64,000 bases of DNA from the IMG/VR virus record IMGVR_UViG_3300039216_000106, positions 1-64,000 of that record; one strand, written 5' to 3'. The notes beneath the pieces were generated by a model that worked only from the letters and a program-made list of their open reading frames with translations, did not search any database and was not told the DNA's origin. A program made the position numbers and the translations under genes. Positions 3,093 through 64,000 of this stretch are shown piece by piece; the stretch's first letter is position 1; every line of letters begins with the position of its first letter. The stretch comes from a virus.

Positions 3093-3100
3093 GGTAGACC

Positions 3101-3565: not shown

Positions 3566-3738
3566 TCTGCGATCCGACGTTCAGGGAAATCATCATCCTT
3601 GCCAAGAATGGGATCGCGCCAGGGTTTGACCAAAACGAGATGACCGATATGGAGCGCCAAGCTGCTATCATCGTCATCGGAGAGTGCGATGGTGGGGAAT
3701 TTGATTTCGCTACCATGCGCTGGAAGAAACAGACGTAA
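3101..3738 (+). CDS. tail assembly chaperone frameshift fusion (GT-like product)
   Basis: Hand translation after a -1 slip at 3556-3562 gives ...KKIVCDPTFREIIILAKNGIAPGFDQNEMTDMERQAAIIVIGECDGGEFDFATMRWKKQT. This fills the otherwise gene-free gap before 3750. Confidence 0.5.
3556..3562 (+). promoter_or_regulatory. A_AAA_AAA slippery heptamer for programmed -1 frameshift
   Basis: Codons are aca aaa aaa tag. The -1 frame stays open for 58 further codons, to the TAA at 3736-3738. Confidence 0.55.
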
Positions 3739-3749
3739 GGGCTTTTGAT

Positions 3750-4265: not shown

Positions 4266-4276
4266 GGTACTGAGTA

Positions 4277-6244: not shown

Positions 6245-7122
6245 TGGCTGTCTTTGGACCAGACTTTGTCGTCAAGATCGGGGATGTGGAACTCTCCAAC
6301 CTGGAGATTCCGGCCACCATCAATTTCGGCGGCAAGCAGAAGATCGGCAAGCACCAGTTGCCGGGTGGCGCCCGCATTCTCGACGCCATGACGCAGGACG
6401 ACGACGACATTACGTGGGAGGGCATGTTCACCGGCCCCGATGCGTTCGCCCGCGCGCGTCAATTGGACGGCTACCGCAAGACTGGCGAACAGGTCACGCT
6501 AAGCTATCACACGCTGAGCTACACCGCGATTGTTGCTGAGTTCGTCGGCAATTTCGAGCGCTATTATCAGGTTCCGTACCGCATCGTTTTGATGGTGGTG
6601 GAAGATTTGTCTCTGCCGCCCGCGTTGTCGCCGGGCAACAGCGTCTTTGACCTCCTCAATTCCGATTTGGCGCAGACCCTGGAAACGGCGCTGGCGCTCG
6701 GCATGGGCATTTCTTCTGCTATCCCAGGCCCCGTAGCGTCGTCGGTTGGCGTCAATCCGCAAACGCCCGGCATAACAGCGCCCGTCCTCACCTATGGCAT
6801 GTCGCTTGACGACCTGGCCGCTGCGCTGACCGTGGTTCGCGAGGACACCGACGCCATTGTGACGCCAAGCGGCGTTACTGTCGCCAGCGTGGCGCAACTT
6901 GTGGCCGCGTTACAGGTGGCGCAGAACCAATGCGCCGCGCTCATGGCGGAATCCGAAACGGTTTTGGGCGTGGCCACCGTGCCGGGCGGCGTCACGGCAG
7001 GCAGTCCTGACCCGGCGGCGTTTCTGTCGTACCTCGCAACATGTGACCAAGCCGTTCAGATCAACCAGCAAGACGATTACCTGACCCGCATGAACCGAAA
7101 CACCTCTTCGGGAGCGCTGTGA
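6244..7122 (+). CDS. tail protein (gpU / DNA-circulation-like position)
   Basis: 292 aa with a start overlapping the tape-measure stop (TAATG). It lies between tape measure and the X/D-like genes. The family call is weak. Confidence 0.45.
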   Translation: MAVFGPDFVVKIGDVELSNLEIPATINFGGKQKIGKHQLPGGARILDAMTQDDDDITWEGMFTGPDAFARARQLDGYRKTGEQVTLSYHTLSYTAIVAEFVGNFERYYQVPYRIVLMVVEDLSLPPALSPGNSVFDLLNSDLAQTLETALALGMGISSAIPGPVASSVGVNPQTPGITAPVLTYGMSLDDLAAALTVVREDTDAIVTPSGVTVASVAQLVAALQVAQNQCAALMAESETVLGVATVPGGVTAGSPDPAAFLSYLATCDQAVQINQQDDYLTRMNRNTSSGAL

Positions 7123-7334
7123 TGGCCGCAACACAACAGGGCGCACCTCTCAAGACGGTCACGGTGGCGGGCGGCAACCTTTTTTCGATTGCGCTTCAGG
7201 TTCTTGGCGACGCGACGCAATGGAACCGGATCGCGCAACAGAACGGCATGACAGATCCGTGGTTTACCGGCGTGGTCACACTGGCCATTCCGCCCACCAA
7301 TTCAGCGGCGGGGGGTGGGATTTATGGCAGTTAA
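7119..7334 (+). CDS. LysM-type tail protein X
   Basis: 71 aa. VTVAGGNLFSIALQVLGDATQWNRIAQQNGMTDPW is a LysM-like signature, and the gene directly precedes a D-like gene as in P2-type tails. Confidence 0.65.
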   Translation: MMAATQQGAPLKTVTVAGGNLFSIALQVLGDATQWNRIAQQNGMTDPWFTGVVTLAIPPTNSAAGGGIYGS

Positions 7335-8454
7335 CAATCCGTCGCCGCAATCGCAAGTCCGTTTTCCCTACGCCCGCGTTTTGCTGAACGGCAAGCCGGT
7401 GCAGAACTGGGAAACCGCGATGGTGACCAAGAACGCGCACTACGTTTCCGATAATTGGTCGGTCGAACTCCCGATGAATGGCTTGGTCGCGCCCTTCGAC
7501 GCCGCCTATTTCGGAACGCAAACCGACTTGCAGATGGAAATCCAGGCCGGGTTCAAGAATGCGGATGGCACGCTCGGGTCGCCGACTTCGCTGATCATCG
7601 GTGTAGTCGATGAAATTGACGAAGATTTCCTGCGTGAAGACGGCAGTCAGATGATCGTGATGCGCGGGCGAGATTACACCGGCGCCTTGATCGATTCCAT
7701 CGTCACGTTCACGTACAAAAACATGACCTCAAGCCAAGTCGCGGCCAAGATCGCCGCAAACCATCCCGAACTGAAACCGAAGATCACGGCGACACACAAG
7801 AAGGTCGGTTCGTATTTCAACAACGAAACGAACCTGGAAAGCCGGAAGATTTCGGAATGGGATTTGCTGACGCAACTGGCACAGGACGAAGGTTTTGTCA
7901 TCCTGATCCGTGGCACTCAGCTTTACTTTGGACAGCCGGAAAAGCCAAACGAGACGAACCCGTACATCTTCAAATATGTGCCGCGCGATGCTGGGCAAGT
8001 GCTCCAATCGAACGTGTTGACCCTGAAATGCACGCGCGCCCTAACCGTCGCGCGGGACGTGAAAGTCGTGGTGCAAAGCTTCAGCCGCGCCACAGGAAAG
8101 AAGGCAAAGGCAGAGGCCAGCGCCCTCAACCCGCTTCGCAACAACAGAACCGGCAACAAGGCGGGGACACAGATTTATTCGTATAACATTCCGAACAAGA
8201 CGCACGCCCAATGCCAAGATTTGGCAACTGCCTATCTCAAGCAGATCACAAAGCGGGAACGCGTCATCGAAATTTCCGCTCCCGGCGATCCGCTGCTCAC
8301 TGACGATACTGTTATGAGCCTGACGGGGACAAATACGGCGTGGGACCAGTTTTATTTTGCAGACAGGATCGAGCACGAACTGAACGCCAACAGCGGATGG
8401 CTTATGCGGGTCAGGGCCAAGAACCATTCCACCAGTTCAACGCTTCCGACGTGA
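7324..8454 (+). CDS. late-control D / baseplate hub family tail protein
   Basis: About 376 aa from the ATG at 7324 (an upstream GTG at 7315 is possible). Size, position and the ..MTSSQVAAKIAANHPELKP.. segment resemble the P2 gpD family. Confidence 0.65.
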   Translation: MAVNNPSPQSQVRFPYARVLLNGKPVQNWETAMVTKNAHYVSDNWSVELPMNGLVAPFDAAYFGTQTDLQMEIQAGFKNADGTLGSPTSLIIGVVDEIDEDFLREDGSQMIVMRGRDYTGALIDSIVTFTYKNMTSSQVAAKIAANHPELKPKITATHKKVGSYFNNETNLESRKISEWDLLTQLAQDEGFVILIRGTQLYFGQPEKPNETNPYIFKYVPRDAGQVLQSNVLTLKCTRALTVARDVKVVVQSFSRATGKKAKAEASALNPLRNNRTGNKAGTQIYSYNIPNKTHAQCQDLATAYLKQITKRERVIEISAPGDPLLTDDTVMSLTGTNTAWDQFYFADRIEHELNANSGWLMRVRAKNHSTSSTLPT

Positions 8455-8922
8455 AAGACGTGCTTTGTCCGCTTTTTTCAACTTCTCTTTTTTCATCATA
8501 GCTTCGGCACCGCGGACTGCTTTGGCAATAACGTCCGCCCTTAAAAGCTGTGGTGGTATAACGGTAGTCACCGCCTGTGGTTTGGTCTTGCCGTGCTTTG
8601 CTTTAAGCGCACGATAGCGCTTTTCCCAGCGTGCTGCCGACAATTTGGCGCGCAGAATGATCGCCAGCAATTTCTTGTACGCCTTGATGTAGTGCAGTTT
8701 CTTGTCGCCGATGCGAGATGCGTTATAGATCACATCAACAAACTCTTCGTCTGTTTGTCTCTTGGCCTTTGGCGCAACTGGTGCTTTTGGTTTGGGGCGC
8801 ATGAGTTCAATATCTCCCTCTCTCAATGGTTCTACCCTGACGAGAAACTGCTTGTCGCCACGCATAATGTAGGCAAATTCTGCCGGCTTGCTCGGGTTTT
8901 GTTCGGTCACAACACGCACCAC
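8437..8922 (-). CDS. hypothetical Lys/Arg-rich protein (antisense moron, gene 2)
   Basis: 161-aa ORF on the opposite strand inside the tail operon. GC is lower by eye and its 3' end overlaps the gpD-like stop by 18 nt. GTG start at 8922, or alternatively ATG at 8865. Confidence 0.5.
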   Translation of the reverse strand: MVRVVTEQNPSKPAEFAYIMRGDKQFLVRVEPLREGDIELMRPKPKAPVAPKAKRQTDEEFVDVIYNASRIGDKKLHYIKAYKKLLAIILRAKLSAARWEKRYRALKAKHGKTKPQAVTTVIPPQLLRADVIAKAVRGAEAMMKKEKLKKADKARLSRRKR

Positions 8923-9497
8923 AGAATGATTACCAAGTTGACGACCGTTAAAGCGCTTCCGATGAGAGTGAGGCGTTTTGCCATACGTATTCTTCTGTCG
9001 TCATTGGTCGGTTTGACCGATTGGGTGTGGCTGTGTTGTAGCTGCCTTTCCTCAATTTTACTTATTCTTTGCTCGAAGTACGATTCCGCACCGAAAAGAG
9101 TTTTTTTCATCCGTTCAAAAACCTCGTTCTGATTTGCAGGGTTGCTTTTCGCTTCCTGCGTGGCCTTGGCGAACGCGGACGAAATCCATCTCTCCATGTC
9201 GCACATTTTCGTGTAGATCATGTTTTCGACCGGGGATGGCTTGCGATCTTCCTGGGGCTCTTCCGGCGCCATTGGCAATCGCTCAAGTTCCGAACGTGCC
9301 GTCCGCTTATCATTCTTGTTGGGCAGCGGAATGACGTGTTTTCTGACGCGACCGTTTTGCCACGTCGTGATGATGCGCGCCGCTGGGTCGGCCTCCGTTT
9401 GCCGAATGACGCAAATCTCTTTGATTTGCGCGTCACCGATGGCTTGACCAAATCGGATGTGTGTCGTCAGGAAGTCTTGGAGTTTCACGCCTGTCAT
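8907..9497 (-). CDS. hypothetical tail-anchored membrane protein (antisense moron, gene 1)
   Basis: 196 aa with an ATG start and a single C-terminal hydrophobic helix (LTLIGSALTVVNLVIILWCVL). No family recognised. Confidence 0.55.
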   Translation of the reverse strand: MTGVKLQDFLTTHIRFGQAIGDAQIKEICVIRQTEADPAARIITTWQNGRVRKHVIPLPNKNDKRTARSELERLPMAPEEPQEDRKPSPVENMIYTKMCDMERWISSAFAKATQEAKSNPANQNEVFERMKKTLFGAESYFEQRISKIEERQLQHSHTQSVKPTNDDRRIRMAKRLTLIGSALTVVNLVIILWCVL

Positions 9498-9529
9498 GGT
9501 GTCTTCCGCCTAAATTTTCCCTCGCAAAC

Positions 9530-9569
9530 GTAACGCTCTGTGCGGTGTAACGCAAGGAAATTGTAACGC
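9530..9569 (-). promoter_or_regulatory. three direct copies of the GCGTTAC(A) box upstream of the antisense moron
   Basis: On the minus strand the boxes read GCGTTACA (9569-9562), GCGTTACA (9553-9546) and GCGTTAC (9536-9530). Spacing is 16-17 bp, 33-72 nt upstream of the ATG at 9497. Confidence 0.4.
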
Positions 9570-9600
9570 ACGGGCGCACTTTCGTCCCCGTCGCCCGTGC
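9568..9600. other. perfect 9-bp inverted repeat (hairpin) flanking the moron control region
   Basis: GCACGGGCG (9568-9576) pairs with CGCCCGTGC (9592-9600) around a 15-nt loop. It overlaps the distal box copy. Confidence 0.3.
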
Positions 9601-9667
9601 CAAATCGGCTTTGTACAAGGTGTTCTATTGGCTTATGGTCAGGACACAATCTCTGGGATGATGCGCC

Positions 9668-10327
9668 GTGTCCGGTGGTATGGAGGATTTAGCCAACTAT
9701 AACCGCCAGCAAATGGAGCGGAATTCCCGCAATTACCAAGAGCCGCGCATGGGCTTGGTCACGGCGTGGGACGGCAACGCCATCGCGGCCAAGGTCAAGA
9801 TACAGCCTGAAGATTTTGAGAGTGGATGGCTTCCGGTCGGCGTCGATTGGATGGGCAACGGCTGGGGCTTTATCGCGCCGCTGGCCGAAGGCGATCAGGT
9901 GTTGGTCGTTTTCCAAGAGGGGGACCGCGATTCCGGCATTATCGTGAAGCGGATTTTCGACCAACGCAACCCGCCGCCCGGCGCGGCCGCGGGTGCAGAG
10001 TCCGGAGAACTTTGGCTGGTCCACAAATCCGGGTCCATGCTGAAACTCACCAACGACACCAATGTCACCATCATCAGCGCTGGCGACCTCGACGTAACGG
10101 TTAGCGGTGCCGTGAATTTGACCGTTACCGGAGACGTTTCCGTTGCGGCTCAAGGTGATGTAAACGTGACGGCGCAGGGCGATGCGAATGTAACGGCGCA
10201 AGGCAATGCTGCGATCACGGGCGCGACGGTTCTGCTCGGTGGTGGCGGCAAGAAGGTGGTGCTTGACGGCGATTCTGTGGTTGCCGGTAAGGTGGTGGCG
10301 AGTTCAACCAAGGTAAAGGCGACGTGA
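9668..10327 (+). CDS. baseplate assembly protein V / central spike
   Basis: 219 aa. GLVTAWDG..AKVKIQPEDFESGWLPVG...GDQVLVVFQEGDRDSGIIV plus C-terminal GDVNVTAQGD repeats are typical of the gpV/Mu gp45 family. Confidence 0.7.
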   Translation: MSGGMEDLANYNRQQMERNSRNYQEPRMGLVTAWDGNAIAAKVKIQPEDFESGWLPVGVDWMGNGWGFIAPLAEGDQVLVVFQEGDRDSGIIVKRIFDQRNPPPGAAAGAESGELWLVHKSGSMLKLTNDTNVTIISAGDLDVTVSGAVNLTVTGDVSVAAQGDVNVTAQGDANVTAQGNAAITGATVLLGGGGKKVVLDGDSVVAGKVVASSTKVKAT

Positions 10328-10689
10328 TGCCAGACCTCGACGCAACTTGGAGCCAAGACCTTTCCACCACGCCCAGCGGTGACCTTGCGCTGGTCGATGA
10401 CATCGCCTTGACCGAGCAACGCATCATCCGCCGCTTGCTCACCAACCCCGGCGATTATTTGTGGCACCCGGAATACGGCGCCGGACTTCCCCGTTACATC
10501 GGGCAGGCCGTGCCGCCAAGCACAATCGAAATGGCGGTTATGGCCCAAATTCTCCAGGAACAGACCGTGGCGCGCAGCCCGGCACCGAAGGTCACGGCCA
10601 GAATAGCGCCGGATCAGATCAGCTTGACCATCAATTACTGGTCCGCCACGTCCGGGGCGCCACAACTGCTTGAATTTGATGTCAGCTAA
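10324..10689 (+). CDS. baseplate wedge protein W / gp25-like
   Basis: 121 aa. DLALVDDIALTEQRIIRRLLTNPGDYLWHPEYGAGL matches the GPW_gp25 signature from memory. Its start overlaps the gpV stop. Confidence 0.65.
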   Translation: MMPDLDATWSQDLSTTPSGDLALVDDIALTEQRIIRRLLTNPGDYLWHPEYGAGLPRYIGQAVPPSTIEMAVMAQILQEQTVARSPAPKVTARIAPDQISLTINYWSATSGAPQLLEFDVS

Positions 10690-10731
10690 TGTGGATTTGT
10701 TGTAGGCTCGCGCCCAGAGGTTCGTAACGCA

Positions 10732-17386: not shown

Positions 17387-17815
17387 TCAATCCTTGCCAG
17401 CGAGCTGGCACGCGAGGTCAAGAACGGCTTTGCGCTGGCCTGTTGAGATGACACTGAATGCCACCAGAAGGTTTAGCGCGCCCGGTTCGTTGAGTGCTTT
17501 AAGGGCATCCATAGCGACGGGCTTGCCGGACTGATCGTTGTCGAGGTCACTGATAAGCGACGACACTGAGCATTGCAGCGTGGCCGCAATCTGAACGAGC
17601 CGTGAAAAGCTCACGCGGTTCGCGCCATGCTCGTATTTTTGCACCTGTTGAAACGTGATGTCACCGCAGAGTTTTCCGAGGTCTTCTTGCGACAGACCAA
17701 GTTCCTTGCGGCGCAACCTGATCCGCGCGCCCAGCGCAACATCAAGCGGGTGTGGACCATTTTCCTTCGCGGTGATACGTGTTCTTGCAGCCATCGAATT
17801 GCCCTCCTGTGGCAA
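17387..17815 (-). CDS. XRE-family HTH transcriptional regulator (repressor candidate)
   Basis: LGARIRLRRKELGLSQEDLGKLCGDITFQQVQKYEHGANRVSFSRLVQIA is a classic HTH_3 pattern, with an added C-terminal domain. Confidence 0.75.
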   Translation of the reverse strand: MPQEGNSMAARTRITAKENGPHPLDVALGARIRLRRKELGLSQEDLGKLCGDITFQQVQKYEHGANRVSFSRLVQIAATLQCSVSSLISDLDNDQSGKPVAMDALKALNEPGALNLLVAFSVISTGQRKAVLDLACQLAGKD

Positions 17816-18523: not shown

Positions 18524-19257
18524 TGCGCTGCCTTCTGGGTTCGGACCTTCAGCCAGTGCTTCGCGTTGGCCTTGATATCGCGGTCCATGTCGCTCTTGTC
18601 CACGATCCACGATAGGTAATCGAGCGGGACATCATCCCACTTGGCGCCCTTGTGCTTGCCGAAATTCACGCGCGGGAGCAGCGCCGGGCCGTTCGACCAT
18701 CGAACCATGTCATCGATCGAGACTTTCCCCGATTCCAGTTCCATAACCAGAAGGTGCGCCGTAACATAGGCGTCGGGGCCGGCGCGGTGCGGCGGCATGG
18801 CGAGCGTTTCGTCATCAATCTGTAACGGGAGGAAGTAACGCAGGAATTGGTTGCTGTGGTGGCTGGCGTCGGGCCAAAGGCGTAACGCGACCTTGAAAGT
18901 GCAGATCCATTTCACGTCGTTCGTGATGAACTTGCGCTCAAAATCGGCGTTGTGGGCTGCGAAGTAATTTGCGCCGCCGCCCATCACATTGGCCAGAACA
19001 TCGGCGGCCGTGGGCATCGCGGCAACTTCCGCGTCTCGGATATGGTGGACCGCCATGGCTTCCGGCGGGATCGGGCGCCCTGGGTTGCAGAGTTGCGATC
19101 CCCACCGGCCCGGTTCAATCCAAGCCCGCACCGCACCCGGAACCGGGTCATCCAGTTTGACCGCAATATCACACCAGCCGATTTCGACAATTTCGGCGCC
19201 GCCCTCGGCTTCCGGCATTCCCGTCGTTTCACAATCGATCGAGCGTATCCTGATCAT
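18520..19257 (-). CDS. DnaQ-like DEDDh 3'-5' exonuclease with C-terminal DUF3820-like tail
   Basis: IDCETTG, AAHNADFERKF and HRAGPDAY motifs, then FGKHKGAKWDDVPLDYLSWIV. Confidence 0.75.
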   Translation of the reverse strand: MIRIRSIDCETTGMPEAEGGAEIVEIGWCDIAVKLDDPVPGAVRAWIEPGRWGSQLCNPGRPIPPEAMAVHHIRDAEVAAMPTAADVLANVMGGGANYFAAHNADFERKFITNDVKWICTFKVALRLWPDASHHSNQFLRYFLPLQIDDETLAMPPHRAGPDAYVTAHLLVMELESGKVSIDDMVRWSNGPALLPRVNFGKHKGAKWDDVPLDYLSWIVDKSDMDRDIKANAKHWLKVRTQKAAQ

Positions 19258-19484
19258 TTCACCCGCACCCCTTTGACCATGTCCGCCAGTTCACACCCGA
19301 CCGCGCCAGCAATCCGCGCCAGTTCAAACAGCGGCACCGGCCGCTCCCCGCGTTCGTAACGCGAGATTTCCGAAAAGTCCCTGCCGGCGCATTTGGCCAG
19401 CGCTTCAAGGGTAAGGCCAGCGCTGATGCGCCGCGCCCTGATTCTGGCGCCGATCTCGGTGTAGAATTTGGCTTGCTTGGTCAC
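19254..19484 (-). CDS. small XRE/Cro-like HTH protein
   Basis: IGARIRARRISAGLTLEALAKCAGRDFSEISRYERGERPV. The internal GTG at 19484 has a GAGG 6-7 nt upstream; the longer ORF to 19652 overlaps the next gene. Confidence 0.55.
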   Translation of the reverse strand: MTKQAKFYTEIGARIRARRISAGLTLEALAKCAGRDFSEISRYERGERPVPLFELARIAGAVGCELADMVKGVRVK

Positions 19485-19578
19485 GACTTCACCTCGAATG
19501 CCTGCAATGGCGTCCCCGTTTTGATGTAGAGTGGGTGTTTCGGCGCGGCGGCTTCTTGGGGTGCATTGGGCAATCTGC

Positions 19579-19797
19579 CTAAAAAGGGATTTCTCCGTCG
19601 TCCATAACGTCGTCACCCGTCTTGTGCCAATCGACATCCCGCTTGATGGCAAAGCCTTCGCTGCCGAGAACGAAGAACGCGACGGCCGGGTTCATACGAG
19701 CAAGGCGAGCCGCTTCTGTTCGCGCCGCCTCGAATGAATCGTGCCGGTATGTTGTGATGTTGCTGTTGTTGGCGAGAACCATCCAGAATTTGTTCAT
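19579..19797 (-). CDS. hypothetical protein
   Basis: 72-aa ORF co-oriented within the early-left operon. Confidence 0.45.
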   Translation of the reverse strand: MNKFWMVLANNSNITTYRHDSFEAARTEAARLARMNPAVAFFVLGSEGFAIKRDVDWHKTGDDVMDDGEIPF

Positions 19798-31947: not shown

Positions 31948-31988
31948 ACTCCCGTGACTCGGCCCGACCGGCACCCACTCACGGGAGT
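31948..31988. other. perfect 10-bp inverted repeat at the boundary of a low-GC HNH island
   Basis: ACTCCCGTGA (31948-31957) pairs with TCACGGGAGT (31979-31988) around a 21-nt loop. Confidence 0.35.
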
Positions 31989-32001
31989 AATCAACAGAGC
32001 T

Positions 32002-32550
32002 ATGAGAAAACACATCGGCTGTCTCAATGATGAGGCTATTCGAGCGTTAGCTTTTGCTACGGTTGTCAGTCATCTCAAAAAAATAGGCTTTATTTCTAAG
32101 GAAAAAACCACTCCTTATGAGGTTTGCGAGGCCATATATCGACAACTTGGATGGAATTTACCGTCCATCAAACGTCATTGTAATCGTATAATCATACGAT
32201 ATTTGATGCAGGTTATTCCTCATGAAAGCCGGAAAATAGTAAAGACGTTAACAATCCTTCCTGAAATAAGAACCGTATCGGCTCCAAAACAAGATAGCTT
32301 CTACGCGACAGTGGAGTGGAGGCGCCTCCGCTATAGGGTATTCAAGGAGCGCGGGGCAAAATGCGAACTCTGCCAACAGACTGACGGTCCACTGCATGTA
32401 GATCACATAAAACCCAGATCGCGGTTCCCAGAACTGGCACTCAACGAAGATAACCTCCAGATTCTGTGCGAGGAATGTAATTTAGGCAAAGGAACTTGGG
32501 ACCAGACAGATTGGCGGCAAGAATCTAAAAACAAAGAGGCGCGCGAGTGA
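32002..32550 (+). CDS. free-standing HNH endonuclease (homing-endonuclease-like)
   Basis: CELCQ...LHVDHIKPRSRFPELALNEDNLQILCEECNLGKG. The region is markedly AT-richer than its flanks by eye. Confidence 0.7.
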   Translation: MRKHIGCLNDEAIRALAFATVVSHLKKIGFISKEKTTPYEVCEAIYRQLGWNLPSIKRHCNRIIIRYLMQVIPHESRKIVKTLTILPEIRTVSAPKQDSFYATVEWRRLRYRVFKERGAKCELCQQTDGPLHVDHIKPRSRFPELALNEDNLQILCEECNLGKGTWDQTDWRQESKNKEARE

Positions 32551-44325: not shown

Positions 44326-44715
44326 ATGACCAACCACCCGAACAGAAAGAAGACCGCGGCCCCGCTGCACTGGCGGCAGGGCGACGTACTGCTTGTCGCC
44401 ACGGATCGGATTCCGGCCGACGCCGCGCCGGTCGGACGCGACGAACACAACCGCTTGGTCCTCGCCAACGGCGAAGTCACCGGCCACGCCCACGTCTTCC
44501 GCGGCAAGGGCATCTGCGGTTTCACCAAACTCGACAACAAGGACATCGAATACCTTCTGGTCGAGACCGGTGGCGGTTCCGGCGCCACGCTCAAGCACGA
44601 GTTGGTCAGCGGCGCCAAGGCCGACCATGATCCGCAGCAAATTCCGGACGGCAAATATCTGCTTGGCCAGCAGGTCGAGTATACGCCGGCAGAACTTATC
44701 CGTGCGAGCGACTAA
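44326..44715 (+). CDS. hypothetical beta-rich protein (GEVTGHAH motif)
   Basis: 129 aa from the ATG at 44326, ending 1 nt before the repeat-protein start. Confidence 0.45.
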   Translation: MTNHPNRKKTAAPLHWRQGDVLLVATDRIPADAAPVGRDEHNRLVLANGEVTGHAHVFRGKGICGFTKLDNKDIEYLLVETGGGSGATLKHELVSGAKADHDPQQIPDGKYLLGQQVEYTPAELIRASD

Positions 44716-44716
44716 C

Positions 44717-46009
44717 ATGGCACAAAAACTCGAACTCACAGACGAGCGAAAAGCCATCATCACTGCTTCGCTCGAAGAGTGGATGGCAGCTGGACTGTCC
44801 ACTGCGCCGGCTGATTTTGGTGCGGCAGAGGAAGCCATTGCCGTCCTCTATAGCCACATCGGCCGTAAGCGGCCCCATTTTGTTCGGCTCAGTTCTCCGC
44901 TCGGTGCAGAACTTTACATAAACTTGCTTTGTCAAACTTGGCCCAAGGTTGATTTGAAGTCGCTCAGGGACCAGCTCAGGGACCAGCTCGGGGGCCAGCT
45001 CTGGGACCAGCTCGGGGACCAGCTCGGGGACCAGCTCGGGGACCAGCTCGGGGGCCAGCTCGGGGACCAGCTCGGGGGCCAGCTCAGGGACCAGCTCGGG
45101 GACCAGCTCTGGGACCAGCTCGGGGGCCAGCTCGGGGACCAGCTCTGGGACCAGCTCGGGGGCCAGCTCGGGGGCCAGCTCAGGGACCAGCTCGGGGACC
45201 AGCTCTGGGACCAGCTCGGGGGCCAGCTCGGGGACCAGCTCTGGGACCAGCTCAGGGACCAGCTCGGGGGCCAGCTCAGGGACCAGCTCAGGGACCAGAA
45301 ACTGAACTATATGGGAACGTGGTTCTGGGGCCAATGGGATTATTTATGGGCATGGCTGGATGGTGGTCGCCGGATTGGCGCTCATTACGATGACAAGCAG
45401 AACGCCATGCTTGATGCACACTGCACACTAGTCAAATCGTGCGGCTGGTTTTATCCGTTCGATGATTTCTGCATCATCACGGATCGACCGGAAATTATCG
45501 CGCGTGATGATCGTGGGAGGCCGCACTCTGACAATGGCCCTGCACTACGTTATCGTGACGGCTACAGTCTGTACGCGTCACATGGCGTGCGGGTCCCGAC
45601 CGATCTTGGCGTTGACCACTCCAAGATCACGGTAGCGCGGATCGACGCGGAACAGAATGCCGAGGTCCGTCGAGTTTTGATCGGCTGGTTCGGCATGGAC
45701 CGGTATTTGCGGGAATCTGGCGCTACGGTTGTGCATGAGGACTTTGACGCGCTGGGCAATCCGCGGCGCCTGTTCCGGCGTGAACAGCCGGACGACGAAG
45801 CGATTGTCGCCGTTGAGGTGACGGATTCGACACCGGTTCCGGATGGTGAGGCCAGAAAGTATGTGATGCGCGTTGATCCGACCAAGTATGACGGCCGCGC
45901 TGGCCGGGAGTGCCACGCTGCGATTGCATCGACGTGGCGGCGCAAGGATGATCTGTCCAAGATGATGTTTGCACGACCCGAGGATTATGCACCGGTAGGC
46001 GAGACGTGA
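44717..46009 (+). CDS. tetrapeptide-repeat protein: N-terminal helical region, 28 x L-x-[D/G]-Q repeats, W-rich C-terminal globular domain
   Basis: 430 aa from the ATG at 44717. The repeat block LRDQLRDQLGGQLWDQLGDQ... is followed by GTWFWGQWDYLWAWLDGG...DNGPALRYRDGYSLYASHGVRVP. Confidence 0.65.
   Translation: MAQKLELTDERKAIITASLEEWMAAGLSTAPADFGAAEEAIAVLYSHIGRKRPHFVRLSSPLGAELYINLLCQTWPKVDLKSLRDQLRDQLGGQLWDQLGDQLGDQLGDQLGGQLGDQLGGQLRDQLGDQLWDQLGGQLGDQLWDQLGGQLGGQLRDQLGDQLWDQLGGQLGDQLWDQLRDQLGGQLRDQLRDQKLNYMGTWFWGQWDYLWAWLDGGRRIGAHYDDKQNAMLDAHCTLVKSCGWFYPFDDFCIITDRPEIIARDDRGRPHSDNGPALRYRDGYSLYASHGVRVPTDLGVDHSKITVARIDAEQNAEVRRVLIGWFGMDRYLRESGATVVHEDFDALGNPRRLFRREQPDDEAIVAVEVTDSTPVPDGEARKYVMRVDPTKYDGRAGRECHAAIASTWRRKDDLSKMMFARPEDYAPVGET
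44963..45298 (+). repeat. 28 tandem copies of a 12-bp unit CTC-NGG-GRC-CAG, in frame
   Basis: Counted directly: 336 nt equals 28 x 12. Units 11-18 and 19-26 show a higher-order 8-unit (96-bp) pattern. Confidence 0.95.
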
Positions 46010-46952: not shown

Positions 46953-48680
46953 ATGTTCAAAAAAATTGCCGCCACCGTTCCGGCCTATGACTGGGCGCCA
47001 GATGGCTCCCGCTTCCGCAAATTGGATCTGTTTGACCGGTTGCTGGACGGCACTTTTTACGACGGGCTGAAGCACTCGTTTTACGATGAGACCGAGGGCA
47101 TGGGCCAAGCCGCGGTCCCGATCCCGATCGATCAGCGCCGCCCGTCAACACAATACCGCCTTCCCCGCATGGTGGCGCGCTGGTCCAGCCGCAAGCTGTT
47201 TTCGGGTCGCCACGTCCCCCGCATCAAGCACGATGACCCCAAGGCTAAGGCACGGGTGGAGGCCCTCATCGTCTCGACCGGGCTTTACCGCAAGATGATG
47301 GAAATTGCGTTTCGCGGCTCTGTGGGCTCGGTGGCGGCGACGTTCAGGGTCGAGACCAACCCCGCGGCGGACGGCAAAAACGAGGATGTGCGCTGCGGCG
47401 TGAACGTGTGGAAGGCCAAATGGTGCTGGCCCAGCTTTGACACGATGGGCGAGTTGTCCGCGTTACGCATTGCCTACCTGACGTGGCCCGCCGCGTTCGC
47501 CGCGATGAACCTCCCCGACCTCAAGCCGATGGAACCGAACCGGCAATACTGGTTCATCCGCGATTACCTGACCAACTCGGAAGTGACGTTTCAGCCGGTT
47601 CTGAAAGAGGACTGGGACCCCTGTAACGGGTTCAAAGAGGGCGCGACCGAGCACGAATTGACGCCGTGGGACACCCACACGCACGATTTTGGCTTTGTGC
47701 CGGGGCATTGGTTCAAGAATTTGGCCGGCGGCGAAGACCCGGACGGGGCCTGCACATGGGAAGATGCAATCCCGGATTCGATCGAACTTGACTATGTTTT
47801 CAGCCAGGTCGCGCGCGGCACCCGTTACAACTGTGCTCCGCAGCCGGTCATCATCGGAAACCTGATGAACCCCGGTGACATGACGCGCGGGCCTGCCGTG
47901 GCGCTGTTCCTGGAGCCTGGGCGAAAGGACCCTGAAGGTAACGTAATCAACGCGGGCGACGCCAAGCTGCTCGAAATGACCGGCAAGGGGATCGAGGCCG
48001 GATTGATGGTGGTGGACAAGCTCCACGACCACGCGCTCGAGCAAATCAGCGCGGCCCGCAAGGACCCTCAGCGCATGAAGGGTGTGTTGTCCGGCCGCGG
48101 CATGGAATTCCTGGACCAGGACAGCCACGACCTCGTTATGGAACTGCGCACCGCCTACGGCGACGAAGGCTTGCTGCCGCTGCTCCGCAAGATGTGCGTT
48201 GCGGTCTACGACGGCGAGATTGACGCGGCCCGTATCGCGTTACAGTGGCCGCGTCTCAACCAGCCGGAAGCGGCCGACATATCGTCAATGGCGGACGGTA
48301 TCAGCAAGTTGCTCAATCCGCTCCAAGCCGCCTATGCCCCGGCCCGGCCCGCGTCCAGCGAAAAAGGCCCGGACGGCACCACGACGCCGGTCCCGGCCAG
48401 CGAAGAGCAAAAGCCGCCGGAAGACTTCATGTTGGTCACGCCGGACCAAGCCAAGCTGTTCGTCTCGACCTATCTCGACCTGACAACGCTGGAACTGGAC
48501 GGCGCCGCCGTGGCGGAAGTCGAGGAACAGTCCACCGCCGACCTGCCGGGCGAGCCGATTGAGACCGCGCCGGCCGCGCTTGGGCCGGAAGACCAAGAAG
48601 TAATCGAGGGCGAAGGCGAGGCGCAGACCGATCCTGTCGCGGACGCCATGCAGAATGTCATCAATCGGATGGGGATGTAG
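46953..48680 (+). CDS. portal protein (putative)
   Basis: 575 aa with an acidic C-terminal tail. It is the only portal-sized ORF between terminase and capsid genes. The call rests on size and context, not motif. Confidence 0.6.
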   Translation: MFKKIAATVPAYDWAPDGSRFRKLDLFDRLLDGTFYDGLKHSFYDETEGMGQAAVPIPIDQRRPSTQYRLPRMVARWSSRKLFSGRHVPRIKHDDPKAKARVEALIVSTGLYRKMMEIAFRGSVGSVAATFRVETNPAADGKNEDVRCGVNVWKAKWCWPSFDTMGELSALRIAYLTWPAAFAAMNLPDLKPMEPNRQYWFIRDYLTNSEVTFQPVLKEDWDPCNGFKEGATEHELTPWDTHTHDFGFVPGHWFKNLAGGEDPDGACTWEDAIPDSIELDYVFSQVARGTRYNCAPQPVIIGNLMNPGDMTRGPAVALFLEPGRKDPEGNVINAGDAKLLEMTGKGIEAGLMVVDKLHDHALEQISAARKDPQRMKGVLSGRGMEFLDQDSHDLVMELRTAYGDEGLLPLLRKMCVAVYDGEIDAARIALQWPRLNQPEAADISSMADGISKLLNPLQAAYAPARPASSEKGPDGTTTPVPASEEQKPPEDFMLVTPDQAKLFVSTYLDLTTLELDGAAVAEVEEQSTADLPGEPIETAPAALGPEDQEVIEGEGEAQTDPVADAMQNVINRMGM

Positions 48681-49944: not shown

Positions 49945-50834
49945 GCAAGTCGATTTGCATCTATCACGGCGGCTGCGATGACGGGTTTGCCGCGGCATGG
50001 GCGCTCCGCACATCAATGGTGCCTGACACATTCGAGTTTCACCCCGGCGTCTACGGTAACGCTCCTCCTGACGTTTCTGATCGGCACGTTGTTCTTGTCG
50101 ATTTCAGCTACAAGCGCCCAATTCTGACCGAAATGGCGAAGGCAGCAAAGTCAATTCTCATTCTCGACCACCACAAGACGGCGGCCGAAGACCTCGCCGG
50201 AATGCCGCACCCCGGCACCCGCGACGAATGGTGTTTCAGTAAGGCGCCGGACGGCGTCGCGGCGATCTTCGATATGACCCGAAGCGGCTCCGGTATCGCG
50301 TGGGATTTCTTTCACCCGTATCAGGCGCGCCCTGCGTTCATCAATTATGTCGAGGACCGCGACCTTTGGCGCAAGGCGCTTCCGAACGGCGACGAATTTA
50401 CCATCGCTCTGCGGTCACATCCACAAGACTTTGAGACGTGGGACAGGCTTGTCGCCGCAGGCCCAGCGCCCCTGATCGAAGAAGGCCGCGCAATTCAGCG
50501 CTATTATCGGCTTCGCGTCGAGGAACTGAAGCAAAGCTCCTATCTCGCAAAGATTGCTTGGGGCCATGACACCAGAGACCTTACGCGGTCCACCATCGCC
50601 ATCGCGAACGCGCCATATTTTGCGGCGAGTGAGGTTGCGGGCGAACTATGCGCCGTCGATGGTGCCGAGTTTGGGGCAAGCTATTTCGAGGTACGGCCTG
50701 GACAATGGCAATATTCGCTACGATCCCGTGGTGATTTCGATGTTTCGGCGGTCGCCAAGTGCTTCGGTGGCGGCGGGCACAAGAACGCAAGCGGTTTCAC
50801 CATGCCATGGCCCGTTCACGAGAAATTGCCGTGA
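49941..50834 (+). CDS. DHH/DHHA1-family phosphoesterase
   Basis: IYHGGCDDG (motif I region), VLVDFS, ILDHHKT (DHH) and the C-terminal GGGHKNASGF (DHHA1 GGGH). ATGA overlap. Confidence 0.7.
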   Translation: MSKSICIYHGGCDDGFAAAWALRTSMVPDTFEFHPGVYGNAPPDVSDRHVVLVDFSYKRPILTEMAKAAKSILILDHHKTAAEDLAGMPHPGTRDEWCFSKAPDGVAAIFDMTRSGSGIAWDFFHPYQARPAFINYVEDRDLWRKALPNGDEFTIALRSHPQDFETWDRLVAAGPAPLIEEGRAIQRYYRLRVEELKQSSYLAKIAWGHDTRDLTRSTIAIANAPYFAASEVAGELCAVDGAEFGASYFEVRPGQWQYSLRSRGDFDVSAVAKCFGGGGHKNASGFTMPWPVHEKLP

Positions 50835-53652: not shown

Positions 53653-53737
53653 CCGCGCTTTTCTAATTCCGAGGACACCATGCGTAAATTCCTGATCGCA
53701 CTTCTCGCCGCTAAAGCATCCATTGGAGTTGCATAAC

Positions 53738-56700
53738 ATGGCTGTCTATTTCACGCGAGTGGCGACCCTTTCCGACCTTGCAGCAAAAAATGCAGCCCAA
53801 TGTTCAAGCGTTGGCGGTTTTATCTGCGATGAAACAGGCCATTCATACGAGTGGGAATCAACATCTACAAAAGCGGCCGCGTCGGCTTCTTTTCCACAAG
53901 GCGTTTGTCCGACAGTCATCATCCCGGTGGGTAACCCTGCATCCGGCCGGTTGGAAATTATACTTGCAGATTCCGACGTTGCTGCAGTTCAGGTGATAGC
54001 AACAACCGGTCGCGTTCCAGATCTTGCAAAAGTTGCGTCGGTATCGACCACAAATATCACCTTATCCGGCGAGCACACCATCAATGGATTCACAACAAGC
54101 GCATCTCGCGTCTTGCTGATTGCACAGACCACACAAAGCCAAAACCGTGTTTGGATAACCGGGTCGGGCGCATGGACCACCGCGACAGACGCGGATAGCG
54201 CTGCGGAACTCGGGCTTGCTACCGTCGAAGTTGATGCGACTACATCAACGCTTGCAGGTCAGCGGTATCAATGCCCACTCACCGCCGCGCAGATAACGGC
54301 CGGTGGTGGTGTCGGCACGGTAGCAATCCCCCCATGGGTCAACATTGGAACAAACGCAGCGGCTGCCGCTGTCGCCGCCGAGGCTGCTGCCCGCTCTGCC
54401 GCGGATGATATTTTACGCGGGGAGTCTATAACGGGCGGCGTGACTGCTCCGGGTGCAGGTTATGGTGGGTGGGGCCCTGGTGCAACCGTATTTTGTAGCC
54501 AACCCTTCACTGCAACGGGTCTGCTTCAGACATTAAATTTTTATTTAGATTACGCAGGTCCAGTGGTACTGACTTTAGTTGAACTGAACGACGCAGGTAC
54601 CTCTATCGTGCAACTGGGAGATACTCTTACCCTCCCAAATGCAGTTGGCGGACTCAATACTGTGACGACATGGAATCCTGTCGTCACTCAAGGGTGGTAT
54701 GTAGCGGTTCAAAACGTCTATCACAATGTCAGATACGATAATCAGGCAGGATCATACCTGATTAGCACAAGTCAGGCAATAACGATAGCTAGTACACTCT
54801 CTAATGTTGGAGGGGTTATTTCTGAAATTGGTTGGAAGATTATTACAGGAATTGCTGCTGAGGCCACTATACGTAGTACAAATGATGCTGCTGAAGTCGT
54901 AGCGCGCAACGCGGCCATCGCTGTTGAGACTGGAAATCGTGAAGATGCAATCAATGCTGAGGCTGCGGCTCGCCAAGCACTTGCAGGCGCGGTGCTTTCT
55001 GGCGGAGAACTCAACCCAACCGCAGCCTATGGCGCTTGGACTCTTGGGAACACCGTATTTTGCAAAGATCCCTTTGCGGCCACTGGACCAATTAAATCAA
55101 TCCCAATATATATGCCTGCGGCAGGGTGCATTGAACTTGCACTGGTAAAATTAATTGCTGCAAATACGTTTACGTCTGCGATCTGGACGTCAGGTGTTCT
55201 TACGCTAACTACCGCCGCCGCACATGGAGTGCCGTCAGGTTCTGACGTAACAATCTCGGGGCTAACTAGCTCAAATAGTGTGACGGTGAACGGGACGTTT
55301 GCGACGGCCTCTGGGACTACAGGATCGACTATCAATATCCCCATTTCTGCCGATCCTGGAACGGTGGGGTATTCTTCTGGCGCGCTCGCTGCGGGGATGG
55401 TTGTTGGAGAGACTTACGAATACACCGCCGCGGCTGGTACATCGGTCATCACCACATGGCATCCAGTCGCCGCGCCGGGGTGGTATTTGACAGCCTATGC
55501 GGAGGGGGGAAACCATATTCGGTATGCTAATACTGTCGGTCAGAACAGCTATGCAATGCTGGGGCGTCCTGGTGAATTGTCTGGTGCAGTTGTAGACTAC
55601 AGCGGTATTGTTTTTCAATTCGGCTGGACGATGACCTGTGGTCTAGTGGGGGAAACCATAGCCAGTGGAGGAGCGGCGGAGGCACTATCCGCAGCAATTC
55701 TAGATCAATCAACAAGCACCCCAACCACAGTCTCGGCCGCGACAGCACTGGGAATTAAAAAAGCATTTCTTGTTACTGGCTATAGTGACGCCGACGCTAC
55801 GGCGGCGGTCAATAACACGATTATTCCAGACACCACTCCTGACTACATTTCGGCCATACAGTTTGTGCAGCCTGCTTGGGCTGATCGTAACGGCAATAGC
55901 GGTTATGCACAAAGCAATGAGTTTTCCGGAACTGGTGGGGCGCCCGTCCTAACCACCCAGCCGTACTACAACAAAATGCCGGACTCGACGTATGCGGACT
56001 TTGTAGCAAACCCAGGGCCGGATGTGAATCACATCCGCTATGAAATAACCGATACAGGTACAATTACCGGTGAACGGCCACTACTGATTGGCGGTGACGC
56101 AGTAATAAACGTTGTGCCTGAGACTACTTTTTGTGAGTCGTCAAACTACGCGGTAGAGTGGGCCTCCGACAATTGGGGTGTTAATCCTGCGAAAAACATC
56201 GTCTACGCTTTTTGTGGTGGACGTGGTGGAGAGCCACTCAACCACTTCATCAAAGGTACCGATCCATATACAGTATTTATGGACTTCTTTGCGCAGTCAC
56301 AAACCTATTTCCATTCTCAAAATCTGAGCTACAACGTCCAAACGATACCCTATATCGGACACGAGAACATTGATACCGCTGCCACGCCTGATGCCTATTC
56401 TTGGGCGGAGATGTTTAAGAAGTTAGCGCACGATAGATCGGGAGATATTGCAAATCTCACCGGACAGCAAACTCCGGCCTACACTCTCGGCGTACCGACT
56501 TGCGTCGGAGTTTTGCAGGGGCAGGCACAGCAGGGCATGTTGAAGGCTTGTCTGGAAGACTCGATTTGCTGCTACGTTACACCTGATTACGACATAGTGA
56601 GAAACACGGTAGACGCTACGCACTATATTCGCTCAGGGGCTCTCTACTTAGGAGCAAAAATTGGTCGGGCTCGCGCTCAGATAATGGGTTCTCCAACTTA

Positions 56701-57292
56701 CGGAATTCGTGGCAGAAAACCAGATTTTTTGAAACCAATAAACTTTATTTATTATGGCATAAGCAAGGGCTCAAAAGTCATCCTTACATTTCAGGCTCCC
56801 GGCGTACTTGAGTTTGCACAGCTTACCTTGGCCGGAGCAACGGGTTGGTCAAACAAACCTAGTGGCGCAAATGGTTGGGCGCCTCGCGGATTGAACCTGC
56901 AAGCCAAGGGTATTGGGTCTCTTTTCTCCTCGGATAACACTACAGCTTATAATCAGATGATCATCGGCAGTAATACCGTTTCGATTGAATTTACTCTTGA
57001 TCACGACCTTCCATCTGCGGGTAATGGTCCGGCCCTCATCAGTATCTCAACAGGCGGCTGCGGAGATTTGTACGGACAAGTAGTGGCTCCTGGAATTAAC
57101 GTTGCCAACGGCGGAAGTTGTGACTTGCGCGCCCATAGCACGGATGTCTATCATAATCCAGCGGACGGCATTGATTACCCCATGCACCACCTTTGTCCGC
57201 TGTTTTCTATGATTGCGACTCCAGCCCCTTCAATTCCATTTTCACAGTACCCGGACAATGAAGACTGGTTGCGGATGATGGGATTAGTGTAG
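53738..57292 (+). CDS. very large fibre / spike-like receptor-binding protein with internal duplication
   Basis: 1184 aa from the ATG at 53738 (GGAG upstream). The N-terminal SRVLLIAQTTQSQNRVWITGSGAWTTATDAD is spike-like, followed by two coiled-coil plus beta modules. GC is lower by eye. Confidence 0.65.
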   Translation: MAVYFTRVATLSDLAAKNAAQCSSVGGFICDETGHSYEWESTSTKAAASASFPQGVCPTVIIPVGNPASGRLEIILADSDVAAVQVIATTGRVPDLAKVASVSTTNITLSGEHTINGFTTSASRVLLIAQTTQSQNRVWITGSGAWTTATDADSAAELGLATVEVDATTSTLAGQRYQCPLTAAQITAGGGVGTVAIPPWVNIGTNAAAAAVAAEAAARSAADDILRGESITGGVTAPGAGYGGWGPGATVFCSQPFTATGLLQTLNFYLDYAGPVVLTLVELNDAGTSIVQLGDTLTLPNAVGGLNTVTTWNPVVTQGWYVAVQNVYHNVRYDNQAGSYLISTSQAITIASTLSNVGGVISEIGWKIITGIAAEATIRSTNDAAEVVARNAAIAVETGNREDAINAEAAARQALAGAVLSGGELNPTAAYGAWTLGNTVFCKDPFAATGPIKSIPIYMPAAGCIELALVKLIAANTFTSAIWTSGVLTLTTAAAHGVPSGSDVTISGLTSSNSVTVNGTFATASGTTGSTINIPISADPGTVGYSSGALAAGMVVGETYEYTAAAGTSVITTWHPVAAPGWYLTAYAEGGNHIRYANTVGQNSYAMLGRPGELSGAVVDYSGIVFQFGWTMTCGLVGETIASGGAAEALSAAILDQSTSTPTTVSAATALGIKKAFLVTGYSDADATAAVNNTIIPDTTPDYISAIQFVQPAWADRNGNSGYAQSNEFSGTGGAPVLTTQPYYNKMPDSTYADFVANPGPDVNHIRYEITDTGTITGERPLLIGGDAVINVVPETTFCESSNYAVEWASDNWGVNPAKNIVYAFCGGRGGEPLNHFIKGTDPYTVFMDFFAQSQTYFHSQNLSYNVQTIPYIGHENIDTAATPDAYSWAEMFKKLAHDRSGDIANLTGQQTPAYTLGVPTCVGVLQGQAQQGMLKACLEDSICCYVTPDYDIVRNTVDATHYIRSGALYLGAKIGRARAQIMGSPTYGIRGRKPDFLKPINFIYYGISKGSKVILTFQAPGVLEFAQLTLAGATGWSNKPSGANGWAPRGLNLQAKGIGSLFSSDNTTAYNQMIIGSNTVSIEFTLDHDLPSAGNGPALISISTGGCGDLYGQVVAPGINVANGGSCDLRAHSTDVYHNPADGIDYPMHHLCPLFSMIATPAPSIPFSQYPDNEDWLRMMGLV

Positions 57293-62766: not shown

Positions 62767-63603
62767 GTGCTCACCGAAGCCACAAAAGCGAATGTTCGTA
62801 GGCATTTGCAATTTCCCGCCATCGGGTTGCTGAGGGTATCGGCTGGCGGTCAAACGCTGGGCAGCGCTGCGGCTGGCTATCGGTTTTTCGAAGTATTCGG
62901 ACAGTTGGAATGGCGGCTGAACAATTTGGCCGGCAATGAAGAGGCCATGCTGACCGGCGCGAGTTATGGTTCCGTGATCCTGGTCGGGCCTCAACCGGCG
63001 CAGGGCGATACGGTTTCGATCACGGTTTCTGGCGGCTTGATCCCGAGCCCGGTTACAGTCACCGCGACGGCCCCGGCCCCATCGGTTGACGCATCTGGCC
63101 AGCCCACTGACACCCGCATCAACCTCGTGAACGGCTTGGCCGCGGGCATCGCCGCAAATGCCGTGCTTCAATCCCTTGGCGTCTACAGCGCGGCGCCATA
63201 CGGCACCGGCCCCTATTCGCAGAACGCCGCGGCCGTGCCGGAAATCAGCATCGTGTCACCGTTCGATTTTGCCATTTCGGCCACGGGCTCTGGCGTTCTG
63301 AAGCCCCAGGTCACGGCCAACGGGGTGAAACTGCCGCCGAGCGCGAGCCTGGACGGCGGAACGACCACGCTTTACGGGTATCTCGGAATTCTCGACGGGC
63401 TTGAAAGTGCGTTCGCCGGATCGAGCGACAATTTAGATACTAAACGGGCAGCCGTTTGGGAACATCATTCCCAGGAACTTGCCATGAGGCAAAGTTTGTA
63501 TCAATCCTGGGTTTCTCGCCTTTCCGACTTTCTGAACATCCCTGTCAATCCGCGCCGCACCGGCACGCCCGCAACCCACCTTGGCGTCATGAGGTTTTCA
63601 TGA
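62767..63603 (+). CDS. virion protein with one degenerate copy of the repeat module
   Basis: 278 aa with a GTG start. GDTVSITVSGGLIPSPVTVTATA...INLVNGLAAGIAANAVLQSLGV. Confidence 0.5.
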   Translation: MLTEATKANVRRHLQFPAIGLLRVSAGGQTLGSAAAGYRFFEVFGQLEWRLNNLAGNEEAMLTGASYGSVILVGPQPAQGDTVSITVSGGLIPSPVTVTATAPAPSVDASGQPTDTRINLVNGLAAGIAANAVLQSLGVYSAAPYGTGPYSQNAAAVPEISIVSPFDFAISATGSGVLKPQVTANGVKLPPSASLDGGTTTLYGYLGILDGLESAFAGSSDNLDTKRAAVWEHHSQELAMRQSLYQSWVSRLSDFLNIPVNPRRTGTPATHLGVMRFS

Positions 63604-64000
63604 GAGCCGAGGGCATCGCAAAGAAGATTTGGACGGGGTACGGCCGCGCCGGCAAGAAACTCGGTTTTCCGACGAACGTGTATCGCCCATCGTCCGCGAC
63701 CAACCCGTTGGCGCCGGGAAATCTCGTTACCACGCTCAAAGCCAGCTTTGCCCACAACGAAGAATTCACGTCGATGGACAAATACGGCCAGCCGATGTGG
63801 CACACCATCATCGACGGCAACAAGGTAACGGACGGCGACTATCTGGTCTACACCGACTTGCATTTCGACGGGACGCGGACCTTTTTTCTGGCCTGCCGCT
63901 GGCCCGATTTGCCTATGCCCTCGGTCTACTGCAACTCGGTCATCAACGTGATGCGACCGGCGCAGAATGCGGGGACAGGGGTGCAGGGCTATGGCGGCAA
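63600..64000 (+). CDS. structural-module protein, 3' end cut by window edge
   Basis: ATG at 63600 (ATGA overlap). Hand translation is open to base 64000 (MRAEGIAKKIWTGYGRAGKKLGFPTNVYRP...). Confidence 0.5.
   Translation, partial: MRAEGIAKKIWTGYGRAGKKLGFPTNVYRPSSATNPLAPGNLVTTLKASFAHNEEFTSMDKYGQPMWHTIIDGNKVTDGDYLVYTDLHFDGTRTFFLACRWPDLPMPSVYCNSVINVMRPAQNAGTGVQGYGG

Follow-up and report, generated by a model that had tools for sequence, protein, structure and literature searches.

Two minus-strand genes inserted between the D-like and V-like baseplate genes of a myovirus: a candidate moron-like accessory cassette with two orphan proteins

Why does the late tail operon of a virus carry two genes that are read in the opposite direction? 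This question is raised by a 64,000-nucleotide stretch of viral DNA, positions 1 to 64,000 of the IMG/VR record IMGVR_UViG_3300039216_000106 (hereafter the window), in which the plus-strand genes of a D-like baseplate hub protein and a V-like spike protein are separated by two minus-strand open reading frames (ORFs), here called A and B. The best-supported answer is that A and B form a horizontally acquired, moron-like accessory operon, which would encode a tail-anchored membrane protein and a coupled basic partner and would be non-structural and dispensable for the virion. In terms of kind, we regard the cassette as a further case of a class of element that is already known, the accessory insert lying antisense within the late operon of a phage, and here it encodes two new protein families. 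The ORF list of the window confirmed the pair where a preliminary description of this DNA had placed it, between the D-like and V-like genes.

The position of the cassette was compared with 18 related loci (L004-L006, the viral contigs L007-L016, and L021-L025, which include one Pandoraea chromosome) whose D proteins are 32-62% identical to that of the window. At every one of the 18, V comes directly after D: its start lies at most 30 nucleotides (nt) from the D end, mostly with a 4-nt overlap of the form ATGA or GTGA. The gene tables of L021-L025 list no gene between D and V, and tblastn found no relative of A or B in L004-L017, at E up to 1e-3 and then up to 5. In the window, D has kept the C-terminal length seen in the relatives as well as its GTGA end. 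Since the D C-terminus is unchanged, the GTGA is retained and the relatives have V directly after D, the insert lies exactly at the D/V junction and has broken the translational coupling of the two genes. The cassette is a lineage-specific insertion at this junction, and of this we are practically certain. A synteny check against insert-free relatives, as proposed at the outset, was hence in agreement with a moron-like accessory cassette: the segment is extra DNA, as the definition of a moron in the sense of Juhala and Hendrix demands (PMC3594210), and its composition is atypical. Orthologues at the same place, as expected of a conserved baseplate structural protein, were absent from the related loci. 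Likewise, homologues serving as conserved baseplate components, whose discovery had been set beforehand as refuting, were not found. When the D alignment was used to scan contigs from genomes and metagenomes, just three more loci came to light, which were distant or short.

The deviating base composition, the other mark of a moron, is visible at several levels. As first noticed by eye, the guanine-cytosine (GC) content of the insert (0.511) is lower than that of its flanks (D 0.547, V 0.595); the genome has 0.579. Only 2.9% of equal-sized windows have a GC content as low as this, and GC at third codon positions is 0.62 and 0.54 in the cassette ORFs compared with ~0.70 in the flanking genes. 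The two ORFs fill 87% of the insert. At its borders, neither a target-site duplication nor terminal inverted or direct repeats were found. The cassette is also set apart by its orientation. The late plus-strand block runs from ~38 kb to the end of the window and on from its start to 16.9 kb, and within it the cassette is the sole credible minus-strand unit. A crude gene map gives two further minus-strand calls in this block, at 50151..50315 (54 aa) and 63587..63823 (78 aa), which are both low-scoring; the tail operon, described earlier as otherwise uninterrupted, is so as far as credible units are concerned, if not for every call. With A and B, antisense genes are nested in a co-directional operon, which is the layout of a noncontiguous operon (PMC11087260).

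The two ORFs are probably coding. A codon log-odds model was trained on the confident genes of this phage, and the frames of A and B obtained +0.09 and +0.11 per codon (0.089 and 0.107), the best of the six frames, with the other five negative. These values are below those of the tail genes (0.26-0.48) and inside the range of the homology-supported non-structural genes (-0.18 to 0.15), as illustrated by a helicase (0.09), a methyltransferase (0.10), an MmcB-like protein (0.11) and an HNH endonuclease (-0.18). They exceed those of 70 out of 77 false long ORFs and of 99.9% of the longest ORFs in simulated sequence. Furthermore, the sign of the AT skew flips across the cassette, as expected of minus-strand coding. 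Two plus-strand ORFs in the same segment, 8593..9132 and 9069..9533, were considered as genes and ruled out, with codon scores of -0.16 and no Pfam or PHROG match.

What could these proteins be? A carries a single hydrophobic stretch, located at its extreme C-terminus (19-residue Kyte-Doolittle mean of 2.49 at residues 178-196), and in this respect hydropathy bears out the earlier prediction of a 196-residue tail-anchored membrane protein. The predicted transmembrane (TM) anchor, a hydrophobic helix of 19-23 residues at ~174-196, is preceded by the sequence RRIRMAKR, which provides a positive-inside flank; the isoelectric point (pI) of the protein is 9.5. Upstream of this region, the predicted layout comprises an N-terminal helix with a three-strand beta unit, a Pro/Glu-rich linker, two long helices and the basic juxtamembrane stretch, although this secondary structure was taken from a single-sequence AlphaFold2 (AF2) model of low confidence (pLDDT 55). 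The bacterial proteins ElaB, YqjD and YgaM (DUF883) are C-tail-anchored in the inner membrane, with a helical cytoplasmic N-terminal part and one C-terminal TM helix. A would share this topology, but it is twice as long, has the additional beta unit and Pro/Glu linker and does not match DUF883. A Shine-Dalgarno-like AGGCGGAAG is located 5 nt ahead of its ATG.

B is lysine- and arginine-rich, as had been stated: 41 of its 157 residues are Lys or Arg, giving a net charge of +24 and a pI of 10.5, and it has no hydrophobic segment. Its AF2 model (pLDDT 54) displays a short N-terminal beta hairpin, a PKPKAPVAPKAK linker and then mostly basic helices. In public gene calls B starts at GTG 8910, and from this start it shares a 4-nt GTGA overlap with the A stop, which suggests that translation of B is coupled to that of A. 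Compared with each other, A and B show no paralogy (E = 13). Taken jointly, it is probable from these features that A is a C-tail-anchored inner-membrane protein with its bulk facing the cytoplasm and that A and B are translationally coupled.

Neither protein had been recognised at first reading, and this was upheld by every library and database searched. With A and B as queries, Pfam, PHROGs, PADLOC and NCBIfam returned nothing below E = 0.03, and no defence component model of PADLOC-DB v2 matched at E <= 1. Pfam and NCBIfam revealed no toxin or antitoxin domain, while nuclease domains (HNH, GIY-YIG, LAGLIDADG, VSR) were missing from both proteins in Pfam, PHROGs and NCBIfam. In a word-indexed search of 5.8 billion protein clusters A and B matched themselves only, and the cluster members P0002-P0004 differ solely in the annotated start. 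A phmmer search with the concatenated A and B sequences against 1.84 billion representatives also returned self-matches only. Overall, no relative was found among about 15 billion proteins. Translated in six frames, 50,697 phage genomes gave no tblastn match to A or B at E up to 1, and blastn of window positions 7000-11000 against phages none either. Paralogues were absent from all ORFs of the window and from the relatives, and Rfam had no match over 8000-10200. The best PDB sequence match had an E-value of 0.21. A Foldseek comparison of structure models, suggested earlier as a route to identification, gave no usable match: against PDB and BFVD nothing fell below E = 0.02, and the TM-scores of ~0.2 are noise. 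The features of the locus are collected in Table 1.

Table 1. Coordinates of the insert, its flanking genes and the candidate control elements in the window
Feature	Position	Strand	Details
Inserted segment	8455..9667		~1.2 kb from D-like stop to V-like start; none in the relatives examined
ORF A	8907..9497	-	196 aa
ORF B	8437..8922	-	161 aa from GTG 8922; 157 aa from GTG 8910
D-like baseplate hub gene (left flank)	7315..8454	+	379 aa; phrog_52 tail protein, 3.5e-21; homologues annotated 'phage protein D'
V-like spike gene (right flank)	9668..10327	+	219 aa from GTG 9668; PF04717 Phage_base_V, 9.2e-06; phrog_9992, 5.4e-17
Convergent overlap of B and D, 18 nt	8437..8454		last 5 B codons (SRRKR) and stop, antisense to the D 3' end
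Non-coding region upstream of A	9498..9667		170 bp; came with the cassette; absent from relatives
GCGTTAC boxes, three, direct	9530-9536, 9547-9553, 9563-9569	-	16-17 nt spacing; 33-66 nt upstream of the A start codon
Perfect 9-bp inverted repeat	9568-9576 / 9592-9600		GCACGGGCG-N15-CGCCCGTGC; ~-20 kcal/mol, z -2.7 on either strand
Weak candidate leftward promoter	9560..9588	-	-35 GGGACG (9588-9583), 17-nt spacer, -10 TACAAT (9565-9560, in box 3); 8/12
Weak candidate rightward promoter for V	9612..9639	+	TGTACA, 16-nt spacer, TATGGT; 8/12

The region between A and V is presumed to be a divergent control region, serving A and B leftward and V with its downstream genes rightward. Both promoter candidates of Table 1 come from a relaxed scan and represent consensus matches only. 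The three GCGTTAC boxes pointed out in the preliminary description are indeed present, and these three boxes within 40 nt upstream of A make up the sole triple cluster of the motif in the window; from 40 sites in 64 kb, the chance of such a cluster was estimated at ~0.01. Nevertheless, they proved to belong to a motif that is spread over the whole phage and are not a signal particular to the cassette. The window contains 40 copies of GCGTTAC compared with 7.2 expected from dinucleotide shuffles, and 17 of the 40 are intergenic although intergenic DNA amounts to 15% of the sequence. In the relatives L004 and L006 the motif is rare. GCGTTAC may be the binding site of a phage regulator or a promoter element, and its presence upstream of A suggests that the cassette is tied to a phage-wide (or host-wide) DNA-recognition system. 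Elsewhere in the window, examples are found at 42308/42346, 46928, 52648/52711 and 58597/58632/58744; several copies form inverted pairs 30-60 nt apart or precede a gene start by 25-110 nt in the same orientation, and in nine the match continues to GCGTTACAA.

The perfect hairpin at 9568-9600, which had also been reported, was found as described. It adjoins box 3 and overlaps the -35 element and spacer of the leftward promoter candidate. Since no U-tract follows, this repeat does not qualify as a canonical terminator; it may serve as an operator or fold as a hairpin in the RNA. About five or six more perfect stem-loops of comparable quality (at least 9 bp) occur in the 64 kb. One perfect 9-bp inverted repeat at 48222-48255, GACGCGGCC-N16-GGCCGCGTC, holds GCGTTACA in its loop (48237) and lies inside the ORF 46953..48680; it resembles the box-plus-hairpin arrangement at 9563-9600. 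At the other end of the control region, the homologous start of V, judged by alignment with the relatives, is ATG 9680, which is directly preceded by just GGTGGT. After the insertion, the overlap of D stop and V start found in most relatives is gone (9656-9682). The overlap of B with the D 3' end, which had been given as 18 nt and convergent, is correct.

The genome surrounding the cassette has no host flanks. Contig L001, compared with window positions 1-19497 and 63500-64000, joins the end of the window to its start via ~593 nt that are missing from the window; because it bridges the two ends, the genome is circular or circularly permuted, with a size of ~64.6 kb. The same DNA was recovered in at least three further sequencing samples: L001-L003 match the window with 100% identity over 8.6-20 kb. 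The genes recognised include those for a terminase, a major head protein and a contractile-tail module, in addition to RecT, an exonuclease, a helicase, methyltransferases, a replication protein, an HNH endonuclease and two HTH_3 proteins, the last encoded on the minus strand at 17387..17815 and 19254..19652. Lysis functions form a separate region at ~14.2-16.9 kb with a pesticin-like lysozyme and an Rz-like spanin, by which a lysis role of the cassette is ruled out.

On these grounds, the following sequence of events is proposed. A foreign two-gene operon would have been inserted at the normally coupled D/V junction of this ~64.6-kb myovirus. A and B would be read against the late operon from their own 170-bp upstream region, A becoming anchored in the inner membrane and B acting as its translationally coupled, strongly basic and soluble partner. 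Both would be made while late transcription is off, that is early in infection or in a carrier or repressed state. Once the late genes are transcribed, read-through would damp A and B, either by collision of RNA polymerases or by formation of double-stranded RNA; reciprocal interference with late transcription is to be expected, because the cassette lacks a terminator and is oriented against the late operon that surrounds it. The pair would then alter the infected cell to the advantage of the phage, excluding competing phages or interfering with them where the inner membrane faces the cytoplasm, and A might anchor or regulate B. We assign a probability of roughly 0.4 to this proposal as a whole up to an accessory membrane-associated pair under antisense control. 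By analogy, the antisense-controlled timing of A and B has about even odds. A function in exclusion or defence, by which membrane-associated action disadvantages competing phages, is the favoured guess but doubtful, the comparison with known systems being its basis; superinfection exclusion, abortive infection and nucleic-acid binding, all raised in this connection, are guesses drawn from position, topology and charge only. The boldest version is unlikely: A would gate B or hold it as a nucleic-acid-binding protein at the membrane so that competitors are excluded or aborted, late antisense transcription would be the off-switch that spares the carrier, and the pair would stand for a new two-component system and a new family.

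Known systems offer partial precedents. Imm and Sp of the virulent phage T4 are small inner-membrane proteins which are made early and block the DNA entry of later-arriving phages. They differ from A and B in having N-terminal anchors, in being encoded by single genes and in lacking a basic partner, and neither A nor B shows a family match to them. A case similar in location is gp15 of HK97, a moron in the tail operon whose product excludes superinfecting phages from the inner membrane (Cumby et al., summarised in PMC3594210). Like the cassette, it is extra DNA between conserved tail genes, with a GC content unlike that of its neighbours and an inner-membrane product, which in the case of A is a prediction. 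In contrast, gp15 is a single small protein related to the bacterial YebO family; its gene belongs to a temperate phage, has a promoter and a terminator of its own and has been shown to be expressed from the prophage (PMC3594210). The cassette comprises two genes, is antisense and lacks both a terminator and homologues, its phage gives no sign of lysogeny, and the predicted anchor of A is C-terminal where that of gp15 is N-terminal. The antisense position itself is paralleled by genes nested in phage operons and reciprocally regulated by antisense transcription, namely taiEcA/atiEcA of phi80 (PMC11364771) and tha-1/ith-1 of 80alpha (PMC11087260). From the shared feature of nested antisense genes, antagonistic expression of insert and operon would be expected for the cassette too, tying its accessory function to the life cycle. 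However, the phi80 and 80alpha proteins (Tai, the HEPN RNase Tha and the Xis-like inhibitor) are cytoplasmic, have homologues and are encoded beside packaging or lysogeny modules. Moreover, in these phages the antisense gene with its own promoter has its partner gene on the other strand, whereas both genes of the cassette are antisense.

Several findings weigh against the proposed accessory operon. A stop-free run of at least 200 codons occurs in 9% of first-order Markov simulations of the insert, so that ORF length alone is not significant, and stop-free runs of 195 and 163 codons also exist on the plus strand of the insert. Since every public copy has the same DNA sequence (100% identity), purifying selection (dN/dS) is not measurable. 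The C-terminus of B is read from D antisense, and its native end could have been lost at insertion. No sigma-70 promoter with at least 9 of 12 consensus matches was detected for the cassette. A terminator of its own, which the moron definition includes, was not found either, including between B and D: the only minus-strand terminator-like site, at 8128..8105, lies in D, ~310 nt downstream of the B stop, and has 3 G-C pairs, and fewer such sites occur than in shuffled sequences on average. Among the scanned ORFs of at least 240 aa, there was neither an integrase nor a partition gene; because no integrase was found and the genome assembles as a circle, expression from a repressed prophage may not apply. 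Lastly, the single-sequence AF2 models of both proteins are poor, and a function receives no support from any homology, domain, defence-model or structural match.

How do other explanations account for the same observations? A and B might be a phage-internal regulatory or host-takeover module in which, for example, A tethers a DNA- or RNA-binding B and thereby affects developmental timing, blocks division or acts on the nucleoid early in infection. The GCGTTAC motif in the control region, over-represented in this phage and also located upstream of several other gene starts, is in line with such a module, as are a codon usage like that of the early, non-structural genes and the non-integrating appearance of the phage. 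No DNA-binding or regulatory domain was detected, however, and because close relatives manage without A and B, they are not a core regulator; we consider this explanation rather improbable. A toxin-antitoxin-like, abortive-infection or addiction pair has a slim chance as well. One product, such as A, would act as the toxin, to be neutralised by the other, and the pair would persist as a selfish element or by killing competitor-infected cells. Two small co-directional genes with a 4-nt overlap of A stop and B start and with their own operator-like repeats upstream indeed reproduce the layout of many type II pairs, one product being a membrane protein and the other highly basic. Nonetheless, even permissive E-values gave no toxin, antitoxin or defence match in Pfam, NCBIfam or PADLOC, homologues are lacking whereas toxin-antitoxin families are usually widespread, and such a pair would not typically have products of 196 and 157 aa or a tail anchor in the first of them. 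Equally slim is the chance that the insert is non-functional cargo, a fragment of foreign DNA with decaying or fortuitous ORFs tolerated through late read-through. The simulated frequency of long stop-free runs and the plus-strand runs mentioned above would suit this view, and so would the absence of homologues, the absence of sequence variation that could show selection and the end of B inside D. Against it, positive codon scores are confined to the frames of A and B, with P ~0.001 for each relative to simulated longest ORFs. Tandem ORFs with a 4-nt overlap that occupy most of the insert, the Shine-Dalgarno-like site and a clean terminal TM segment with its positive-inside flank also speak against it, and the broken D/V coupling is a cost that is unlikely to be kept for nothing.

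The two remaining explanations are those most disfavoured by the tests that were run. A selfish mobile element, such as a free-standing gene of the homing-endonuclease type and a partner aimed at the D/V junction, would explain the precise intergenic insertion between conserved genes; B is basic and could bind DNA, and the same phage has an HNH endonuclease ORF in another low-GC island. It is highly improbable, given that neither A nor B contains a nuclease motif or belongs to a nuclease family, that the borders have no repeats, that no copies were seen elsewhere in phages or metagenomes and that a membrane anchor is not expected of such an element. The chance that A and B serve as lineage-specific structural or assembly factors of the baseplate is close to negligible. 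Their location within the baseplate module would fit, but they lie on the strand opposite to all late genes, are absent from the 18 related loci, have non-structural codon usage and match no PHROG tail family.

If active, the accessory cassette would enlarge the repertoire of accessory or exclusion functions carried by phages by one new protein pair. As an antisense insert that splits a coupled baseplate pair, it would also serve as a natural example for understanding how late operons tolerate or silence inserts, and the insert-free relatives provide a ready comparison. At the same time, orphan accessory genes are common in phage structural modules, and nothing points to a specific new mechanism.

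Additions of other kinds were observed at the same module in two of the relatives. L023, whose D is 36% identical to that of the window, has an antisense ORF of its own at the next junction, V/W (L023:3117-3425, minus strand, 102 aa), which begins with the signal-peptide-like MKRCYLVLAAILVASPASA and has no Pfam match. Because L023 independently carries this signal-peptide ORF in antisense at V/W, envelope-directed antisense inserts appear to recur in the baseplate module, and its presence suggests that the module is a recurrent landing site. In L005, the V spike (L005:9116-10264) has an N-terminal extension of 187 aa without a Pfam match and absent from the other relatives, which is another lineage-specific addition at the D/V junction.

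Within the window, two further islands of low GC content (0.49-0.52) were noted. One, at ~31600-32550, includes the HNH endonuclease ORF 31954..32550 (PF01844, 2.4e-10) and lies between replication genes; the other, at ~54400-56800, is inside a tail-fibre-like ORF of 1189 aa (53723..57292). Finally, a 12-nt unit (consensus GCTCGGGGACCA, 90% matches) is repeated 28 times in tandem over 44962-45298 in the plus-strand ORF 44393..46009, which has a DUF6745 C-terminal domain and in which the repeat encodes ~28 (G/R/W)DQL tetrapeptides.

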